A DNA stretch of 48,345 bases, from IMG/VR virus record IMGVR_UViG_3300037782_000051, positions 1 to 48,345 of that record. One strand, 5' to 3'. The stretch is from a virus (lineage: Duplodnaviria > Caudoviricetes). The stretch's first letter is position 1. Every line of letters begins with the position of its first letter. A program made the translations under genes and the position numbers. Shown one piece after another: positions 4,850 to 13,066 of the stretch. A model generated the notes under the pieces. It saw only the letters and a program-made list of their open reading frames with translations. It ran no database searches and was not told the DNA's origin.

Positions 4850-5325
4850 CAGTAATCGGCATAGACCCAGCGTTCAGAAAATCGGGCTTCGCTATCTGTA
4901 TCATCGATGAGGATGGCGAAGCACAAGGCAGGATGTTCAAAAGCTTTTTGGACTTTTTGCGGTGGCTGACAGCGCCAGGTGAAGCTCCCGAACGCGCAAT
5001 AGTAGGCATTGAAAACAGTAACCTGCAAAACGTCACCTTCGACATGAAAGGCACAAAAGGTATGGTAGCCAAAATCAGCCGAAACGTAGGCGCTAATCAG
5101 GCAGCAAGCCAGTACACGGTTGACGCCTGCAAATGGCACTACGGCGATAAGTACGTCTTTGAGGTAAGCCCTAAGGAGAAAGGCGCTAAATGGACACAAG
5201 CGATGTTCAGGGCTGTTGCAAAATCGAATAAGCACACTATCGTTGGTAGGTTCAATCAGGACCAGAGAGACGCTTATCAAATAGCAATTGCAGCAAAGAA
5301 GCTTGCAAAACTTGCTAGATTGTAA
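4846..5325 (+). CDS. RuvC-like Holliday junction resolvase
   Basis: N-terminal VIGIDP, central VGIE and C-terminal DQRDAYQIA acidic motifs. Confidence 0.75.
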   Translation: MTVIGIDPAFRKSGFAICIIDEDGEAQGRMFKSFLDFLRWLTAPGEAPERAIVGIENSNLQNVTFDMKGTKGMVAKISRNVGANQAASQYTVDACKWHYGDKYVFEVSPKEKGAKWTQAMFRAVAKSNKHTIVGRFNQDQRDAYQIAIAAKKLAKLARL

Positions 5326-5343
5326 AATTATAATTACATTGCA
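5311..5343 (+). promoter_or_regulatory. Promoter CTTG-N20-TACATTGCA upstream of the operon containing the cassette array
   Basis: Same motifs and spacing as 10892-10924 and 32051-32083. Confidence 0.65.
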
Positions 5344-5376
5344 TCGTATTAATTAACAACCAAAACAACAATAACA

Positions 5377-5637
5377 ATGAGCATGAACAAATTCAACGAC
5401 CTGAACGAGTGGGAGGACGACTACTACTCCCGCAAGCACCAAAGCCGGACCGTAACAGCCGGTTACCTAGTCTGGCTAATCGGAGCCGTTGCGATTTTAG
5501 CAGCGCTCAGCCTGCTATTTTCGTGCAGCCGGACAACATACCCAACACAGCAGCCTGATCGCGTTGCGTGCGATACGCTTATTGACAGGGCTACAGGCGA
5601 GCGCATACCTGTATATAACTGCGAAACGACATGGTAA
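5377..5637 (+). CDS. Small membrane protein or lipoprotein
   Basis: Hydrophobic stretch ending LLFSC (lipobox-like). Confidence 0.65.
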   Translation: MSMNKFNDLNEWEDDYYSRKHQSRTVTAGYLVWLIGAVAILAALSLLFSCSRTTYPTQQPDRVACDTLIDRATGERIPVYNCETTW

Positions 5638-5711
5638 GAAGCAACCTATCCGCCGCCACAGAAGTACTAATCTGGCTGCTAATCGTAGCCACAATTTACG
5701 CTCTATGGTAG
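5631..5711 (+). CDS. Putative 26-aa membrane peptide (MVRSNLSAATEVLIWLLIVATIYALW)
   Basis: Manual translation; overlaps both neighbours by 7 nt. Confidence 0.4.
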   Translation: MVRSNLSAATEVLIWLLIVATIYALW

Positions 5712-5911
5712 CGCTGCACATCACAGATATACAGACCGAACCAGGCACCGAAATTGTAAAGGGCAGCGAAGCAACTCGCGCCACCTGCTTTTTCGTTGCT
5801 TGGTATTCGGAGAGCAAAAAGACATTATACTTTAACTGCTCGGACCCTAAAAAGCTGCTTCCACCTGATGTGGAGCGCATAGGGTTTAGGAAAACAAAAC
5901 GCAAAAAATGA
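5705..5911 (+). CDS. Hypothetical protein
   Basis: ATG at 5705 within track ORF 5564..5911; ATGA overlap with the next ORF. Confidence 0.55.
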   Translation: MVALHITDIQTEPGTEIVKGSEATRATCFFVAWYSESKKTLYFNCSDPKKLLPPDVERIGFRKTKRKK

Positions 5912-6087
5912 AAGACGAAAAATTTGAAATTCGCCATTTGCGCATGGAGATAAAACGCGAAACAGCCTGCGCTCAGCAAGCGGAGGATTGCGGCAAACAT
6001 GAGCTTGCTAAAGCCTATCGGCAGGGGCTGAAGGGTAAGAAAAAGAGGTTGAAGGAATTGGAGGTTAGACGGGGAGGTTGTGTGTAG
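5908..6087 (+). CDS. 59-aa basic hypothetical protein whose stop lies in the first attC-like half-site
   Basis: Manual translation MKDEKFEIRHLRMEIKRE...KELEVRRGGCV*. Confidence 0.6.
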   Translation: MKDEKFEIRHLRMEIKRETACAQQAEDCGKHELAKAYRQGLKGKKKRLKELEVRRGGCV

Positions 6088-6096
6088 CTGTAGTTA
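6073..6096 (+). repeat. Truncated attC-like site (right arm only)
   Basis: GGAGGTTGTGTGTAGCTGTAGTTA is 23/24 identical to 9469-9492. No left arm is present upstream. Confidence 0.8.
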
Positions 6097-6228
6097 TACC
6101 TAGCGAAACCAATAAATGTTCCGGCTGCTGGAGGATGCGGAAGCAGCTAGAGAAACCAATATCGGGCATCCACATTTATTCATCATCGCCTATTCCTTTT
6201 GGCATGGGGCGCTAAAATCTTATTTAAA

Positions 6229-6438
6229 ATGGAAACGACTTACATCATAATCAACCCAAAAACCAATTCTTACTTTGAGGGTTTTTTTGCTGGAAATACC
6301 AACCAGATTACATGGACAGATGATTATTCTGAAGCTGTACATTATTCCTCTGTAGAAGAAATAGAGAACGCAAACTTCTATGTAAAGGGAGATATTCATA
6401 AAGTTGAACATAAAATTAGCGCCCTAGCTAGGGTATAA
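6229..6438 (+). CDS. Cassette 1 cargo (cassette 6093-6439), hypothetical 69 aa
   Basis: ATG after TTTAAA; the stop TAA lies within the TAAC core. Confidence 0.75.
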   Translation: METTYIIINPKTNSYFEGFFAGNTNQITWTDDYSEAVHYSSVEEIENANFYVKGDIHKVEHKISALARV

Positions 6439-6495
6439 CGTACAAGTACTGGCGCTGTGCCGACTGTAAGGAGGTATAGGCGCTAGTACGTTGGT
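6437..6495 (+). repeat. attC-like hairpin 1 (AAC...GGT)
   Basis: GTACTGGCGC/GCGCTAGTAC stem with apical CCGACTGTAAGGAGG. Confidence 0.8.
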
Positions 6496-6625
6496 GTACG
6501 ACGGCTACCAATAGATAGTCGGCTGAGCGACAGTAGGAGCCAGCTAAAGAAACTCTACTCAGGCATCATCTTGTATCAATAGAATTTATTTCAAAGGGCA
6601 GTGCGCCCTTAAAACTATAATTACA

Positions 6626-6874
6626 ATGAATCCTTTTCAACCCTTTAATTACCCTAATCAAAACGACCAATTAAGAAAGAATCAACATCAACAACCCAGA
6701 ACTAAATTTAAGGACATTCAGGTAGGGGACGTCTTTAAACTAGAATGGTCTGGAGGATATACTTTATTTGAAAAAAAATCTAAATCCACGGCAATTGTAT
6801 TAGAATCAGAAATCAAATCTCCTGTTTTTGAGGTTGGAGATATTGAAAATTTCAATCCTAATTCACTTATTTAG
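6626..6874 (+). CDS. Cassette 2 cargo (cassette 6493-6893), hypothetical 82 aa
   Basis: ATG 133 nt after the GGT core; the TAG abuts the inner repeat GGCGCAC. Confidence 0.75.
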   Translation: MNPFQPFNYPNQNDQLRKNQHQQPRTKFKDIQVGDVFKLEWSGGYTLFEKKSKSTAIVLESEIKSPVFEVGDIENFNPNSLI

Positions 6875-6890
6875 GCGCACGCTGTCGTAC

Positions 6891-6954
6891 ACCGTACAGG
6901 GCTACACGCCGTGCTGCTGGGGACTCGGTTGGGGCATGGTGTGTAGCTGTAGTT
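6891..6954 (+). repeat. attC-like hairpin 2 (ACC...GTT)
   Basis: GCTACACGCCGTGC/GCATGGTGTGTAGC stem. Confidence 0.85.
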
Positions 6955-7083
6955 ATGCACCGGCTTAATTCTAATCATACGGCCCTGCGACAATAGGAGC
7001 TGGGCTTAAGAAATTATAATCGGGCAATATTGCCTTTCATTTCAAGGCTCATTCTTCGGGTGCGCCGCTTAAATCAAATTAAA

Positions 7084-7371
7084 ATGACAACATTAGAGCA
7101 AGTTAAAACAGTGCCTATCAATATTTTGCTTGAAAAAGTATGGCCCTGTGGTTTATGCTTAATGCGAGATTGTATGTGGATTGCTTTCTGGGAAAATGAA
7201 GATGAAGAAACGGCCTATACTCAAGATTCAGATTCTTTTGAAGATTTTATTTACAGGGTGATTGCAGATCAAATTGAAAACGGAGATGTTGACCATGAAG
7301 GTTTTAATCACATATCAATTGACTTTGCTATAGCATCAGTTGAGTACAATGAAGCGGCGGCTGGTGCATAA
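7084..7371 (+). CDS. Cassette 3 cargo (cassette 6952-7372), acidic hypothetical 95 aa
   Basis: ATG at 7084 after an A-rich stretch; the stop lies in the TAAC core. Confidence 0.75.
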   Translation: MTTLEQVKTVPINILLEKVWPCGLCLMRDCMWIAFWENEDEETAYTQDSDSFEDFIYRVIADQIENGDVDHEGFNHISIDFAIASVEYNEAAAGA

Positions 7372-7435
7372 CGTGCAGAGCTACCCGCCGTACAGCTTAG
7401 GCCGAGCGTTGGCGTATGGCGGGTAGCGTGTAGTT
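7370..7435 (+). repeat. attC-like hairpin 3 (AAC...GTT)
   Basis: GCTACCCGCCGTAC/GTATGGCGGGTAGC stem. Confidence 0.85.
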
Positions 7436-7567
7436 ATACCTAGCGAAACCAATAAATGTTCCGGCTGCTGGAGGATGCGGAAGCAGCTAGAGAAACCAAT
7501 ACCGGGCATCCATATTTATTCATCATTGCTTAATCCTTTTGGCAGGTGCGGCATAAATTAATCAGAA

Positions 7568-7876
7568 ATGAAATACCCTGAATCAATAATCAAAAAGCTA
7601 GTAATTGCATTTATTGTCATTCTTATATTCAATGCAATTATTTTTTACAGAATGGGGTATCACCAATCAAAGGTTGACATCGCCCACGAATACCCAATCT
7701 TCAATTTGAAAAATGAAGTCTTCAACGATGTTGAGTTTGAAGATGGAATGATATACTTTATGGGCGGTGTCAGCCATAATCACACAGTATACACCTATGA
7801 ATCTGATACATTAATTTTCTTATTCACATATCACCCAATGTCTGGTGTTTTTCTTGAAAAAGAATTGCCGCACTAG
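7568..7876 (+). CDS. Cassette 4 cargo (cassette 7433-7888), N-terminal membrane-anchored protein
   Basis: KKLVIAFIVILIFNAIIFY hydrophobic segment; leader nearly identical to cassette 1. Confidence 0.75.
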   Translation: MKYPESIIKKLVIAFIVILIFNAIIFYRMGYHQSKVDIAHEYPIFNLKNEVFNDVEFEDGMIYFMGGVSHNHTVYTYESDTLIFLFTYHPMSGVFLEKELPH

Positions 7877-7885
7877 CTAGGGTAT

Positions 7886-7942
7886 AACGGACGAGTACTG
7901 GCGCAGGCCTGAGGTACGAAGGCTTGGCGCTAGTATGTTGGT
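7886..7942 (+). repeat. attC-like hairpin 4 (AAC...GGT)
   Basis: GTACTGGCGC/GCGCTAGTAT stem with apical CCTGAGGTACGAAGG; same family as hairpin 1. Confidence 0.82.
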
Positions 7943-8072
7943 GTGTGCAGTTAAACCCTTAATCATAGGGTGAGCGACAGTAGGAGCGAACAAGAACAAA
8001 CCCACAACGGGTATCACAATAATTCTTTCACAGTCTAATCCTCCGGGAGCGGGCGCTTAAAACTTAATTACG

Positions 8073-8342
8073 ATGAAACAAGAATTGAATTTTATGGATG
8101 TTGATCTCGGTCACTTTGATACCGAATCGAAAACTTTTCACCCTAATATAGATAATGTAAAATCAATTGAAGTGATGGGGGAAAACAATTGCAACAATCC
8201 AGAAATTATGGGGTCTATTGAAATTGTATGTTACGATGAAAAATGGGATTGGCCAATTTTCATGTGGGTTAGAGAAGATAAGATAACACTATCAACAAGT
8301 GTATCGTATAGCAACCGCCGAAAAGTAATTTATCTTTCTTAG
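8073..8342 (+). CDS. Cassette 5 cargo (cassette 7940-8360), hypothetical 89 aa
   Basis: ATG 133 nt after the GGT core. Confidence 0.75.
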   Translation: MKQELNFMDVDLGHFDTESKTFHPNIDNVKSIEVMGENNCNNPEIMGSIEIVCYDEKWDWPIFMWVREDKITLSTSVSYSNRRKVIYLS

Positions 8343-8357
8343 CGACCGATTGCACAC

Positions 8358-8417
8358 ACCGGACGGGGCTACCCGGCGTATGGAGCGCAGCGTAATATGA
8401 TCGGGTAGCATAGTGTT
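8358..8417 (+). repeat. attC-like hairpin 5 (ACC...GTT)
   Basis: GCTACCCGG/TCGGGTAGC stem. Confidence 0.78.
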
Positions 8418-8538
8418 GGGTGCAGGCGTACAAATAATAGTGCGGCGAGTGACGATAGGAACGAGTGACAAGAAACCCTAAACTGGTATTTATTAATTCC
8501 TTTCTTTACTCTTAATCGGGGTAGAGCAGGGAGCGAAG

Positions 8539-8626
8539 AACGGTTGGGTGTATGGTGTGTAGCTGACACCACTAACTTTCGGCTAAAGAACTAATGTTTA
8601 ATCTGCTATACACTATATATTGTGTT
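8539..8626 (+). repeat. Nested longer attC-like hairpin of a different family inside cassette 6
   Basis: AAC...GTGTATGGTGTGTAGC / GCTATACACTATATAT...GTT; all non-Watson-Crick pairs in this stem are G-T. Confidence 0.72.
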
Positions 8627-8648
8627 AGCCACCGTAAATACTAAGATT

Positions 8649-8879
8649 ATGATTTTAGAAACAGGATTCAAACTACCACGAGATAAAGGCGTGATTCGAT
8701 TTGGTGATGTACTTAAAAGTAGTATGACACATGATGTAGTAGTAATGTTCCATCAAGGACAGAAGAAACCTATCGTAAAAGTGATAGATGAAGATATTTG
8801 GTTTGAACTTGAAGAGTTTCTTGACTCATGTGGTTCACGTCTTGAAATTAGCCACAACATTAATTATTATTGTGGCTAA
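8649..8879 (+). CDS. Nested cassette cargo (GTTAGCCAC 8624 ... GTGGCTAAT 8880) within cassette 6 (8415-8950); weakly YopX-like
   Basis: ATG at 8649. IRFGDVL...LEISHNI loosely recalls the YopX C-terminal pattern. Confidence 0.65.
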   Translation: MILETGFKLPRDKGVIRFGDVLKSSMTHDVVVMFHQGQKKPIVKVIDEDIWFELEEFLDSCGSRLEISHNINYYCG

Positions 8880-8921
8880 TACTTATCCATGTTCAACATT
8901 TCATTGAATATAGATATAGTT
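8878..8921 (+). repeat. Degenerate nested attC-like hairpin (AAT...GTT)
   Basis: TATCCATGTTCAA/TTGAATATAGATA imperfect stem. Confidence 0.55.
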
Positions 8922-8947
8922 CTTCCCTCCCTGCGGAGCTTGCACCC

Positions 8948-9003
8948 AACGTACAGGGCTACACGCAGGCGCGAGGCACGAGTGCTTGTGTGTAGCTGTA
9001 GTT
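8948..9003 (+). repeat. attC-like hairpin 6 (AAC...GTT)
   Basis: TACAGG-GCTACACGCAGGC/GCTTGTGTGTAGC-TGTA with apical GCGAGGCACGAGT. Confidence 0.85.
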
Positions 9004-9133
9004 ATGCACCGTTTTAACCAGCAGTAGACGAGCCGTAGTGTGCGAAGGCGGGTGACTAATTAATCGGGTAACAAACAATTATTATTTATTCATTTTTATC
9101 TGGCGGCTTAATCGTCAGCAAAACACAACAATC

Positions 9134-9409
9134 ATGCAAACATCAAAAAGAACTGAAATTCATGTAAACCAGCGAATGATTGAAATTCTATCTAAAGGCG
9201 ATTATATCCCATCGCTAGAGGAAGAATTTCAGATCAATTATACCACACGCGGGGTACTTCGCAATGATACCTTAAAGGTTGTAAAAATTGAAGATGAAAC
9301 ACACACAAGTGAACCAACTCAATTTCTACCTGAGATAGAAACCGTTGTAACAAAAATTCACTGTGAAGTTGTAAAGAACCATCATAAACAAAGATTTTCA
9401 TCATATTGA
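9134..9409 (+). CDS. Cassette 7 cargo (cassette 9001-9431), hypothetical 91 aa
   Basis: ATG 133 nt after the GTT core; bracketed by TGGCGGCT/AGCCGCCA. Confidence 0.75.
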   Translation: MQTSKRTEIHVNQRMIEILSKGDYIPSLEEEFQINYTTRGVLRNDTLKVVKIEDETHTSEPTQFLPEIETVVTKIHCEVVKNHHKQRFSSY

Positions 9410-9428
9410 TAGCCGCCAAATGGTGCAT

Positions 9429-9491
9429 AACGTACAGGGCTACACGCAGCCTGTTCAGCCCTCGCGTTGGAGGTTGCGTGTAGCTGTAGTT
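9429..9491 (+). repeat. attC-like hairpin 7 (AAC...GTT)
   Basis: GCTACACGCAGCCT/AGGTTGCGTGTAGC stem. Confidence 0.85.
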
Positions 9492-9616
9492 AGGTACTGC
9501 GAAACAACTAAATGGTCAAGGCGGCGATAGCAAGCCGGGTGACTATAACAACAGGCATCAAACCAGTATTCATCATTCATTTTCTTCGGGCGACTGCCAG
9601 CGTAAATAATAATCGA

Positions 9617-10252
9617 ATGCAAAACAAATTCTTAAATATTGATTGTATGGACGAGCGGGAAGGGCTGCCGTCTTATCCTGATAATTTCTTTGATCTTGCT
9701 ATTGTAGATCCACCTTATGGGTTAGATATAGGTAATTCTCCTAGAATTGTAACAGATAAGGGTATCAAGGGCAAGTCTTGGGATTCAATGATACCTGATA
9801 GAGAATACTTTGAACAGTTAAATCGGGTATCTAAAAATCAAATTATTTGGGGCTGGAATTATTTTGTCCCATTTTTATCTTCTTGTCAATGCTATATCGT
9901 TTGGTACAAGCATCAACCTGTCAAATCTTTTGCAGATTGTGAAAGTGCTTATACATCGTTCAAAAGACCCGCTGTTGTTTTTGACTTTAGATACTATGGG
10001 AATATTGAAGGCGGGACAAAAGCTAGTTTGAAAATTCATCCTACTCAAAAACCAATAAAGCTGTATCAAAGGACTTTAACGGAATTTGCCAAACCGGGCG
10101 ACCTTATTCTTGATACTCATGTTGGTTCTGCATCATCATTAATCGCTTTTGAAAGTATGGGATTCAATTACCATGCTTTTGAAATTGATGAAGATTATTA
10201 TAAGGCAGCCCTGGAGCGCATGCGGGCGGGCATTCAAACAGCAATTTTTTAG
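9617..10252 (+). CDS. Cassette 8 cargo (cassette 9489-10273): N6-adenine/N4-cytosine DNA methyltransferase, beta-class motif order
   Basis: Catalytic DPPY, then HPTQKP, then SAM-binding ILDTHVGSAS and FEIDEDYY. Confidence 0.9.
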   Translation: MQNKFLNIDCMDEREGLPSYPDNFFDLAIVDPPYGLDIGNSPRIVTDKGIKGKSWDSMIPDREYFEQLNRVSKNQIIWGWNYFVPFLSSCQCYIVWYKHQPVKSFADCESAYTSFKRPAVVFDFRYYGNIEGGTKASLKIHPTQKPIKLYQRTLTEFAKPGDLILDTHVGSASSLIAFESMGFNYHAFEIDEDYYKAALERMRAGIQTAIF

Positions 10253-10270
10253 CTGGCAGTAGTAGTACCT

Positions 10271-10335
10271 AACGGACAAAGCTACACGCTGCCACGCCCA
10301 GCCCTCGGTTCGCCGGTAGCGTGTAGCGTGATGGT
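10271..10335 (+). repeat. attC-like hairpin 8 (AAC...GGT)
   Basis: GCTACACGCTGCC/GGTAGCGTGTAGC stem. Confidence 0.85.
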
Positions 10336-10482
10336 GTGTGATGTGATATTCAAATAACTGAGCTGCGACGATAGGAGCGCGGCTGTATTAATACCCCCGA
10401 GCCTGTGGAGGCCGGGGGAGAATGAACTAAATTTTTTCATGGCCTAACCCTACTCGGGCAGGCAGGCGTAAAATAATTTTAA

Positions 10483-10671
10483 ATGAAAGATCAAAAGAAA
10501 AGTGTTGAAAATAAACCTAAAAGAAAACCTTGGAATTACGGGAAAAGAAAACCCATTGTAGATGAAATGGGGAATAAATGGTGTAATTGCATAGAACCAA
10601 AACTAACTTCTAATTCAGGTGTAGGTGGTCAAGCATATTGTTTAAAATGTCATTCAAATTGGTATCATTAG
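10483..10671 (+). CDS. Cassette 9 cargo (cassette 10333-10690), small basic Zn-ribbon-like protein
   Basis: CNC...CLKCH cysteine pairs. Confidence 0.65.
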   Translation: MKDQKKSVENKPKRKPWNYGKRKPIVDEMGNKWCNCIEPKLTSNSGVGGQAYCLKCHSNWYH

Positions 10672-10687
10672 CCTGCCCATATCACAC

Positions 10688-10743
10688 ACCGGACGGGGCT
10701 ACACGCAGGGCTGAGGTACGAAGCCTTGAGTGTAGCTGTAGTT
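10688..10743 (+). repeat. attC-like hairpin 9 (ACC...GTT)
   Basis: GCTACACGCAGGGC/GCCTTGAGTGTAGC stem with apical CTGAGGTACGAAG. Confidence 0.85.
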
Positions 10744-10891
10744 ACATGGCGTTTTAACCTATAATAGTCAAGCAGCGACAGTAGGAGCGCGGGTGACTTT
10801 TCTACTCAGCTACAAACCCTTTCCAATCCTGTCTATTCCGTGTGCGGCCCTAAACTAAATATACTTTGTGTATAAAATAATTGATATAAAA

Positions 10892-10924
10892 CTTGCGCGT
10901 GTGGTATACTTATTGTATATTGCA
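10892..10924 (+). promoter_or_regulatory. Promoter inside cassette 10 (CTTG-N20-TATATTGCA)
   Basis: Same spacing as 5311 and 32051; followed by an A-rich leader. Confidence 0.65.
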
Positions 10925-10953
10925 GCATCATTAACAACAAAACAATATAAATC

Positions 10954-11184
10954 ATGAAAAAGTACCTAGTAAATACCTTATTGAATATCATTCACGAGGT
11001 ATCTGAAATTGGAGGTGAAGTTGATCGCACAGATTTCATTCGTGCTGATGGAAGCAAAGGATGCGTTTTTGGTAAAGAATGGAAAACCATGCACGCAGAT
11101 AATGAGGAAGATATAAAAAATCACCTCCGAAAGCACAGAGAGTATTATTGCAGGATTAACGGATATAGCACTTTAGAACTTTAA
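10954..11184 (+). CDS. Cassette 10 (10741-11414) cargo gene 1, hypothetical 76 aa
   Basis: ATG after the promoter and A-rich leader. Confidence 0.75.
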   Translation: MKKYLVNTLLNIIHEVSEIGGEVDRTDFIRADGSKGCVFGKEWKTMHADNEEDIKNHLRKHREYYCRINGYSTLEL

Positions 11185-11227
11185 CCCAAGCCCCCGCGAT
11201 AACATCAACGGGGCTAAATCTTTTATT

Positions 11228-11413
11228 GTGGATAAAATCATTTCTATCTACCTCGAAAACCAAACCGAGAAAGCAAATCGGCTTGGTAAACACCGTCAAA
11301 CATTAGTGGCTTGGAAACGCAACCCTTCTCAGGCTAGCTTGCAATTGATCGAAGAAGACCTTAAAGCGCTTCTTCTTCTAATACAAGAATACAAGACCGC
11401 AAATGCCATGTAA
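11228..11413 (+). CDS. Cassette 10 cargo gene 2, HTH-like 61 aa
   Basis: QTEKANRLGKHRQTLVAWKRNP resembles an HTH; GTG start; the stop lies in the TAAC core. Confidence 0.6.
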   Translation: MDKIISIYLENQTEKANRLGKHRQTLVAWKRNPSQASLQLIEEDLKALLLLIQEYKTANAM

Positions 11414-11426
11414 CTACATAACACCC

Positions 11427-11468
11427 GCAACCCCGTATGTAAACGCTTGTAAACGACTACGGGGTTGC
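11427..11468. repeat. Perfect 11-bp inverted repeat closing the array
   Basis: GCAACCCCGTA...TACGGGGTTGC, 12 nt after the last AAC core. Confidence 0.7.
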
Positions 11469-11481
11469 TTAACTTGTAAGC

Positions 11482-12114
11482 ATGAAAAGAAAGCTAATCC
11501 TGCTCGACCCAGGCCACGGCGGCATCCATCCAGACACCTGCGAGTACACCACCGCACCAGATAAGATGGCGTACCACGAAGGTTATTACATGCACCATGA
11601 CGGATGGTTTTATGAGGGCGCATGGAACAGGTTTTTTGCCCTTGAGCTAGGAGCTGCGCTGGCTGCTTCTGGCATCCCCTTCTTGTACACCGTCCCTTTC
11701 ACCCGCTGGCATGAAGATGTAAGCCTTGGCGAGCGCATAAGTTATGCTAATTGGTTTCATCAACTGCATGACGTGCTATATATCAGCATCCATGCCAACG
11801 CGCATGACACCACCGTCCGGGGCTGGCAGGTGCATACCTCACCTGGTGAAACGCGCAGCGATGCGATAGGGCAGCAGTTGTGGGGTGAAGTAGAAAAAGA
11901 GTTCGGCAGTACGATAACGATGCGTTCAGACGTGTCTGACGGTGATGCAGACTTTGAAAACAAGTTCAGGGTGCTCACTCAGACTCGCTGCACTGCCATC
12001 TTAGCAGAAAACTTATTTTTCGATAACACTGAAGATGCGCTGCTGCTGATGGATGCGAATTTCGTGGAGCGTTTGAAGTGGTGTTATTTTCGGGTTTGTA
12101 TGGGGTGGTTTTAA
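11482..12114 (+). CDS. N-acetylmuramoyl-L-alanine amidase (Amidase_3), probable endolysin
   Basis: LDPGHGG, FYEG, ISIHANA and AILAEN zinc-binding/catalytic motifs. Confidence 0.9.
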   Translation: MKRKLILLDPGHGGIHPDTCEYTTAPDKMAYHEGYYMHHDGWFYEGAWNRFFALELGAALAASGIPFLYTVPFTRWHEDVSLGERISYANWFHQLHDVLYISIHANAHDTTVRGWQVHTSPGETRSDAIGQQLWGEVEKEFGSTITMRSDVSDGDADFENKFRVLTQTRCTAILAENLFFDNTEDALLLMDANFVERLKWCYFRVCMGWF

Positions 12115-12152
12115 TTTGTAGTTTTACATCAACAACAACAAAGCAATTGCAA

Positions 12153-12995
12153 ATGAAAACAGTAACATCAATATCAGGCGGAAAAACATCTGCTTATCTT
12201 GCTACTCATTACCCTACTGATTACAACGTTTTCTCTTTGGTTAGAATAGAGGACAAAAGTGCTGCGTTCCCTGATAAGAAAATTAGGCAAATAGTAGAGG
12301 ATAAAATCCAAAAGCAATTTATTGCTACAGCTGAAGATGATACTATCATTTACACAATTCTTGATCTTGAGCAGCATATCGGCAGAAAGATACATTGGGT
12401 ATCAGGCGACACCTTTGACAGCGTTATCGAACAAAAAGGCGGTTATCTTCCTAACAAGATGCAACGTTTTTGCACTTCAGAAATGAAGTTAAAGCCTATT
12501 TTTTATTGGTGGGCAGAAACAATAAGCGAACCAATAAAAATGCAAATTGGCTACCGGGCTAATGAGCAAAGAAGAGCAAACACTATGCTATCTAAGTGCA
12601 ATGAAGACGGATTGCTCGAATATAAAGCAACATTTGAAAAGCACTCAAATGGGAACAATAAATGGGAGCAAATACCATGGCAAAAACCATCATTCCCGCT
12701 TATTGATAACGCTGTTTTTCGTGACCAGATAGAAAACTATTGGACTGGTCAAACCGTCCGTTTTGCTGATTACAATAACTGTGTCGGCTGCTTTCATCGA
12801 AACCCCTTATTTCTTCGTAAGATGTGGGATAAACATCCAGCTAAGATGGATTGGTTTGAATCAAAAGAAACAGGGCCGAAAAACCCAAATTGGAGATCTG
12901 ATATATCTTATTCACAAATTAAGCAGCACCGCCCTCAATTTGAATTAGATTTTTCAGATTTTTCAGATTGCGATTCTGGATACTGCGGAATGTAA
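12153..12995 (+). CDS. PAPS-reductase-like (PP-loop) protein with Cys clusters
   Basis: SISGGKTS PP-loop, RFCTSEMK, IGYRANE, NCVGCF and terminal CDSGYCG. Confidence 0.8.
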   Translation: MKTVTSISGGKTSAYLATHYPTDYNVFSLVRIEDKSAAFPDKKIRQIVEDKIQKQFIATAEDDTIIYTILDLEQHIGRKIHWVSGDTFDSVIEQKGGYLPNKMQRFCTSEMKLKPIFYWWAETISEPIKMQIGYRANEQRRANTMLSKCNEDGLLEYKATFEKHSNGNNKWEQIPWQKPSFPLIDNAVFRDQIENYWTGQTVRFADYNNCVGCFHRNPLFLRKMWDKHPAKMDWFESKETGPKNPNWRSDISYSQIKQHRPQFELDFSDFSDCDSGYCGM

Positions 12996-12998
12996 CAA

Positions 12999-13032
12999 GA
13001 AAGCCCCAAACGCTCTTTTGCGCGGGGCTTTC
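12999..13032. terminator. Hairpin at the convergence of the two genome arms
   Basis: GAAAGCCCC...GGGGCTTTC between convergent genes. Confidence 0.7.
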
Positions 13033-13066
13033 ACCAAAACTGCTGTAACTCTCATACGATGCTAAT

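Follow-up and report, generated by a model that had tools for sequence, protein, structure and literature searches.

Cassette ends that pair around a fixed G·T wobble in a phage gene array, a variant of the integron principle

A viral genome of the Caudoviricetes, held as IMG/VR record IMGVR_UViG_3300037782_000051 and analyzed here over its full 48,345 nucleotides (nt; "the window"), carries at positions 6093 to 11414 a row of ten small gene cassettes, c1 to c10, in which the first bases of each cassette (its head) are complementary to the last (its tail). A first-pass annotation had described this end pairing, with a G·T at position 11, and had taken it for a structure-based recognition mark. 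This raises the question of what these cassettes are and what the wobble does for them. The cassettes may be mobile units whose folded ends are read by a recombinase. Alternatively, the pairing could act in RNA, or the array could be the remnant of one copied from elsewhere. Our analysis indicates that the cassettes are probably mobile units of the integron type, with ends that pair in a predicted + strand circle, and that the G·T at position 11 of both arms of their site would be a shape mark for an integron-like tyrosine recombinase likely to come from a Bacteroidota host.

The annotated pattern, ten Watson-Crick pairs followed by G·T at 11 and then one to three further pairs, was borne out in c2, c3 and c5 to c10, that is, in eight of the ten cassettes. 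For c1 and c4 the annotation had invoked a one-base bulge; it can be drawn, but these ends can also be aligned in register (eight pairs followed by T·G, a mismatch and G·T at positions 9, 10 and 11), and once they are read in this way all ten window cassettes have the wobble. The ends covary, as had been claimed: positions 4 to 10 pair with the cassette's own tail in 113 of 119 cells from 17 distinct heads, although the contigs related to the window are close kin and the cells are not independent events. Permuted tails averaged 50.6 paired cells and never exceeded 86 in 20,000 permutations, so that own-tail pairing is beyond chance, while neighboring ends facing each other across a junction pair at only 2 to 6 of 7 positions. 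The outermost triplets are AAC/GTT in seven window cassettes, and the other three (10 of 39 in the larger set below) have GGT heads with compensating ACC tails.

The annotation had also proposed that the wobble be checked for enrichment in a larger set, and there it proved close to universal. Related arrays were found in viral and metagenome contigs by a stem pattern that omits position 11, and 43 distinct cassettes were parsed, four of which were dropped (one false start and three spanning a missed junction). Among the 39 retained (10 from the window and 29 from related contigs), with heads located by a profile that contains G11 and makes no use of the T at -11, position 11 is G·T in 38, T·T in one and Watson-Crick in none; outside the window the figures are 28 of 29 for the wobble and 18 of 29 for ten perfect pairs. 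Other searches for related arrays returned no loci with a strict gapped pattern in viral contigs or a strict pattern in 401 Bacteroidota genomes, one true and two chance loci with a stem 17-mer, two chance loci with a genome-contig pattern, and 11 loci, all chance, with a leader pattern.

One part of the annotation did not survive comparison with true integrons, namely that pairing over 10 bp is unusual beside the roughly 7 bp of a canonical attC. Three IntI arrays with 33 cassettes, taken from genomes that also hold the short recombinase described below, pair over 10 to 11 bp, and pairing of this length is therefore ordinary, being the usual appearance of the R'/R'' ends of a single cassette; pairing beyond the attC boxes is also stated in the accessible part of PMC8352920. 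Since the same 33 cassettes contain no G·T at position 11, it is the wobble that marks the family.

The junctions between cassettes are built around a second wobble. Each reads AAC, an invariant G, a 7-nt spacer that includes this G, an arm, a cap, the partner arm, a 4- to 5-nt spacer, and GTT or GGT. The L arm usually starts with GCTA and the cap is variable. The R''/R' and L''/L' inverted repeats of attC type are present and fold into a predicted hairpin, with bulge-free predicted pairing over the first eight positions of the L arm in most of 52 cores. A G·T also stands at position 11 of the L arm, in 22 of 24 aligned junctions, where Watson-Crick pairs number zero, and in 30 of 52 under an automatic bulge-free register; the G itself is at this position in all nine window junctions. 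Given that the inter-cassette hairpin carries a G·T of its own, the circle form of the site is two-fold symmetric, as would be expected if two recombinase protomers bind it.

A candidate enzyme came from bacterial genomes. A junction covariance model (R1) matched 12 of 151 Bacteroidota genomes, the two weakest matches looking like chance, and several of these host arrays stop some 85 nt short of a divergently oriented tyrosine recombinase of about 280 amino acids (aa). This protein passes the cut-off of NF040815 (225 bits against 220), fails that of TIGR02249 (203 against 265), and is without the IntI insertion, which the available portion of PMC8138268 describes as essential for integron function. 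We parsed 39 host cassettes from 15 loci beside the short recombinase, using a finder blind to position 11, although loci had been assigned to this set partly after sites had been seen in them; position 11 is G·T in 27, T·T in five, A-T in four, C·T in two and G·G in one. By comparison, only four cassettes, one of them with G·T, were called in 29 loci that adjoin other tyrosine recombinases, most of which are longer, and in a quick tree four IntIs formed a branch of their own. The window array shares both the position-11 G·T and the hairpin geometry of these arrays and is of this Bacteroidota G·T-marked type.

The host arrays also bear on a rival account of the wobble, in which the cassette system is the same and the geometry of the pair goes unrecognized: recognition would be of G11 and T(-11) as two individual, sequence-specific bases, or these would do no more than favor the folding of one strand. 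T(-11) is steadier in host cassettes than the pair is (38 of 39 versus 27 of 39), T·T and C·T do occur at position 11, and G:T mispairs are a general feature of attC bottom strands (1.24 per bottom strand versus 0.39 on top, in the accessible part of PMC5027507), a bias that would allow the wobble a passive role. Nevertheless, we consider this account unlikely, given that the phage pair is never Watson-Crick, even though G-C or A-T would keep one of the two bases and stabilize the arm, and that position 11 is marked in two arms of unlike sequence.

Several features of the host loci are recorded here in their own right. One locus with sites of the G·T family (L062, 6162-9641) contains genes for a reverse transcriptase and for a beta-lactamase-family protein, and other host arrays carry restriction and HEPN-domain genes. 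Extra attI-like copies, together with the start of the recombinase upstream region, lie away from an intact recombinase gene at L061 4940-5030 and L066 8255-8340. Mini-cassettes of 36 nt are repeated at L084 3506-3541, L085 10904-10939 and L091 808-843 (oriented), beside near-perfect 88-nt palindromic stems.

The annotation had placed recognition on the folded top strand. The + strand does give the more stable fold, in 49 of 52 cores by a mean of 2.2 kcal/mol, and also in nine of nine modeled circles. Closed GNA triloops, which are especially stable in DNA, are found in 29 of 52 cores on the + strand and in five on the - strand, against 11.6 in shuffles (maximum 24). The word "top" needs correction, however, because the genes of the host arrays sit on the other strand: host open reading frames (ORFs) are antisense to the folding strand in 34 of 39 cassettes, in line with the attC rule that the folding strand lies opposite the gene, whereas in all 39 phage cassettes the ORF is on the folding strand. 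What the annotation called top therefore corresponds to the bottom strand of an ordinary attC, and it is the phage ORFs that are flipped.

We next consider which stretch of DNA moves. Across 58 junctions, stem type is tied to the downstream head (z 6.0 to 7.9, 0 of 5,000 shuffles) and not to the upstream tail (p 0.22 to 0.58), and we therefore rejected the stem as part of the upstream cassette; in this the phage units differ from classical attC, where the site is 3' of the gene to which it belongs. At the right end, seven loci show four different tails that all meet the backbone at one base, and two further tails do so in other related contigs (X2), where the backbone has a 5-nt spacer and an L-arm-like box. 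Together, the stem linkage and the common right boundary define the mobile unit as running from the G after one AAC through the next AAC. Insertion takes place at a single array end, with 11414/11415 as the attI-like entry point, and c10 would be the newest cassette.

This boundary weighs on the possibility that the array is the remnant of a single copying event from an integron-like locus of a host and no longer moves by site-specific recombination. No tyrosine recombinase was found in the phage with PHROGs (56 ORFs), Pfam (30 ORFs) or a six-frame PF00589 search, the left array end is truncated, differently in six related contigs, and c6 contains nested decayed parts, all of which would suit a relic. 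We regard this reading as highly improbable, since at least six different tails abut one backbone base in relatives, the payloads are phage-type genes, one of them common to the backbone, and end pairing is nearly intact across the 39 cassettes.

Both edges of the array have further features. A short motif, GTTAGACGGG, at times doubled, stands at the left end (6060-6080 in the window, and in L001, L019, L020, L021 and L039), and after it the first cassette is truncated differently per contig. To the right, at 11415-11480, a strong hairpin in the backbone past the insertion point and before the endolysin gene resembles a decayed site of the cassette family; a terminator or processing signal is also possible.

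Inside the cassettes, a leader of about 130 nt and a second helix, P2, which pairs the leader end with the stop-codon region, bracket each ORF. In 27 of the 39 cassettes the start of the ORF lies 126 to 137 nt past the head, and in 24 of them all its stop is no more than 22 nt from the tail. P2 scores 374, compared with a permutation mean of 260 and a maximum of 330 in 20,000 permutations (17 frames). A single hairpin is conserved in the leader; of 40 leaders examined 38 could be matched to it, and 36 of these have a Watson-Crick apical pair. A leader profile matches only the ten cassettes of the window, with nothing significant in host loci. By eye, the leaders showed no motif like the Bacteroidota sigma-70 promoter consensus, a computational search for promoters not having been made. 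The c10 payload has its own promoter-like upstream region (10870-10953), similar to 5310-5376 before ORF 5377, which seems to fit the Bacteroidota consensus.

These features could instead point to an RNA structure, in which P1 and P2 close each transcript for stability, RNase processing, or priming or splicing at G·U, while shuffling proceeds by homologous recombination between repeats. The phage folding strand is indeed the mRNA strand, P2 covaries while spanning the ribosome-binding region to the stop codon, and the conserved hairpin would suit a role in RNA. Yet the host-array wobble lies on the strand opposite the genes, cassette boundaries are exact at AAC, and the leader overall is not more structured than shuffles (mean z -0.57, the + strand favored in only 15 of 33). 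Rfam has no family in 5300-12200 bar one chance snoRNA match (E 0.63), and no reverse transcriptase was found among 56 ORFs with PHROGs and 30 with Pfam. We therefore judge an RNA role for the pairing very unlikely. On the same searches, a retron, a group I or II intron and a ribozyme are unsupported.

The leader and trailer frames recur with different payloads. The frame of c1 and c4 has six unrelated payloads in seven members, that of c10 four in four, and two other frames two in two each, and a backbone PAPS-reductase-like gene (12153-12995) shares 87 to 88% identity with cassette payloads in L017 and L046, the flanks being unrelated. We tentatively suggest, as an idea that is still doubtful, that these frames work as cassette factories. 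When P1 and P2 fold on the excised single strand, the payload ends might be brought together so that a new ORF replaces the old one with exact borders at the ribosome-binding region and the stop codon, and phage backbone genes might thus become integron-type cassettes moved by a host recombinase that has no IntI domain and reads two symmetric G·T wobbles. As separate observations, the c6 payload (8540-8925) contains a half stem, an inverted pair (8622-8651 with 8853-8882) around ORF 8649-8879 and an AT-rich hairpin, and in L001 the c6 frame has a 16-bp P2 ending in AAC/GTT around another gene, as if P2 were itself an R arm.

For integron-type mobility, the account that we favor, the following sequence may be envisaged. 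The + strand would fold when single-stranded, with cassette head and tail forming one arm of a symmetric hairpin site. By analogy, a host recombinase of the short family, presumably supplied in trans, would bind both arms, strand exchange would take place at the AAC triplet, and a circle with paired head and tail would be released or inserted. For the choice of strand and register, the two wobbles would stand in for the extrahelical bases that, in the accessible part of PMC5027507, are described as read by IntI. Inversion of the ORFs would let the rightward replication-to-lysis operon transcribe the array. That an enzyme reads the wobble is likewise inferred.

Several observations count against this account. 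The three window cassettes with GGT heads and ACC tails are off the AAC triplet, and 12 of 39 host cassette calls lack the G·T. The ORF-less 36-nt mini-cassettes have A-T at 11, and three of the four A-T rows start there. No recombinase was found in the phage, and the link between enzyme and site comes only from other genomes, where the recombinases beside G·T arrays fall into two groups of the quick tree rather than one exclusive clade. Finally, some stems look chimeric, implying that homologous exchange also acts.

The window ends share a 124-base overlap, and the window is the entire circular 48-kb phage genome, with genes for terminase, portal and tail proteins, DnaB and an endolysin. Replication genes on one side and the endolysin gene on the other flank the array, all on one strand; the features of the array are listed in Table 1. 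The 15 portal matches listed are 40 to 43% identical and come from phages of Bacteroides, Parabacteroides, Alistipes, Elizabethkingia and Croceibacter and from one further phage. When the array was compared with cultured phages by BLAST, the 20 records listed, of 55, matched the methyltransferase only, and a DnaB query against viral contigs returned none. A second variable gene slot lies 3' of endolysin (window 12115-13040; L001 300-900), with the PAPS-reductase-like gene in the window and another ORF in L001; the flanks are common and no cassette ends were seen.

Table 1. Positions of array features in the window
Feature	Positions	Strand	Details
J0	6073..6092	+	Truncated site (only 3' arm and spacer); old left array end
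c1	6093..6439	+	Head 6093 (R box, G11 at 6103); leader of ~135 nt; ORF 6229-6438 (69 aa); tail end 6439
c2 mobile unit	6440..6893	+	Stem J1 6440-6492; GGT-type head 6493; ORF 6626-6874; tail
c3 unit	6894..7372	+	Stem J2 6894-6951; head 6952; ORF 7084-7371
c4 unit	7373..7888	+	Stem J3 7373-7432; head 7433; ORF 7568-7876; c1 frame, ORF differs from that of c1
c5 unit	7889..8360	+	Stem J4 7889-7939; GGT-type head 7940; ORF 8073-8342
c6 unit	8361..8950	+	Stem J5 8361-8414; head 8415; nested decayed cassette parts around ORF 8649-8879
c7 unit	8951..9431	+	Stem J6 8951-9000; head 9001; ORF 9134-9409
c8 unit	9432..10273	+	Stem J7 9432-9488; head 9489; DNA methyltransferase ORF 9617-10252
c9 unit	10274..10690	+	Stem J8 10274-10332; GGT-type head 10333; ORF 10483-10671
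c10 unit	10691..11414	+	Stem J9 10691-10740; head 10741; ORF 10954-11184; tail ends at insertion point
Cassette tail ends, c1 to c10	6439, 6893, 7372, 7888, 8360, 8950, 9431, 10273, 10690, 11414		
attI-like insertion point	11412..11432	+	Backbone resumes directly past the AAC of the last cassette
Second wobble, example	9451..9471	+	G at position 11 of the J7 L arm and its T partner on the 3' arm
Helix P2, example	9593..10260	+	9593-9601 pairs with 10252-10260, enclosing the c8 ORF
Leader hairpin P3, example	6521..6545	+	GA-rich cap (c2)

If the favored account is true, these arrays would represent a second integron chemistry, run by a recombinase that lacks the domain regarded as indispensable to integrons, in which a wobble pair instead of flipped-out bases is the likely mark of strand and site. 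The arrays also bear on the open question of how gene cassettes arise. Given that one frame holds six unrelated ORFs and that a backbone gene appears as a cassette in relatives, the cassette-making step can be studied.

How, then, does the array compare with systems already described? In the literature searched, which did not extend to subscription journals, we found no description of a fixed wobble or of the association of this short recombinase with such sites, and no published name for the Bacteroidota G·T-marked integron-like arrays. The rAID-1 elements of Bacteroidales, defined by a recombinase more than 44% identical to BF9343_RS08045 and by an intergenic motif, resemble them in combining gene arrays in Bacteroidota with a tyrosine recombinase of XerD-like type and with intergenic repeats like those of integrons, but their recombinase lies 5' of co-directional genes where here it is divergent, according to the accessible part of the source (10.1101/471110).

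Clusters of attC sites lacking integron-integrases (CALINs) in phages, including that of Polaribacter phage P12002L, are likewise integrase-less cassette arrays in virulent phages with methyltransferase cargo, according to the part of PMC9892861 available to us, which treats them as IntI-type attC and mentions no wobble mark, inverted polarity or other recombinase. R1 finds two sites in P12002L at E<1e-4 and two weaker ones, on the gene strand, although the ends there are less clean (a bulge or T·T) and the leaders shorter than those of the window. In this genome (L125, 29150-39250) we also observed two arrays ending in the same attI-like sequence, and leaders with a P3-type GA-rich hairpin cap.

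With classical integrons the phage array has in common the GTT...AAC core, present in seven of the ten window cassettes, the complementarity of each cassette's own ends and a single insertion point at one array end, and the advantage of one strand in folding (about 2 kcal/mol for attC, in the available text of PMC5027507) is a further likeness to the phage + strand. Unlike classical attC, the phage sites have a fixed G·T at 11 in both arms, spacers of 7 nt on one side and 4 to 5 nt on the other and, in most cores, no predicted bulged base in the first eight L-arm pairs, and they tolerate GGT/ACC cores. The phage ORFs are inverted, and an IntI with its specific insertion stands beside the array neither in the phage, which has no PF00589 match, nor in the host partner, where the associated recombinase lacks that insertion. 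Given these likenesses and differences, we conclude that the array is a variant of the integron principle and not a member of the classical integrons.

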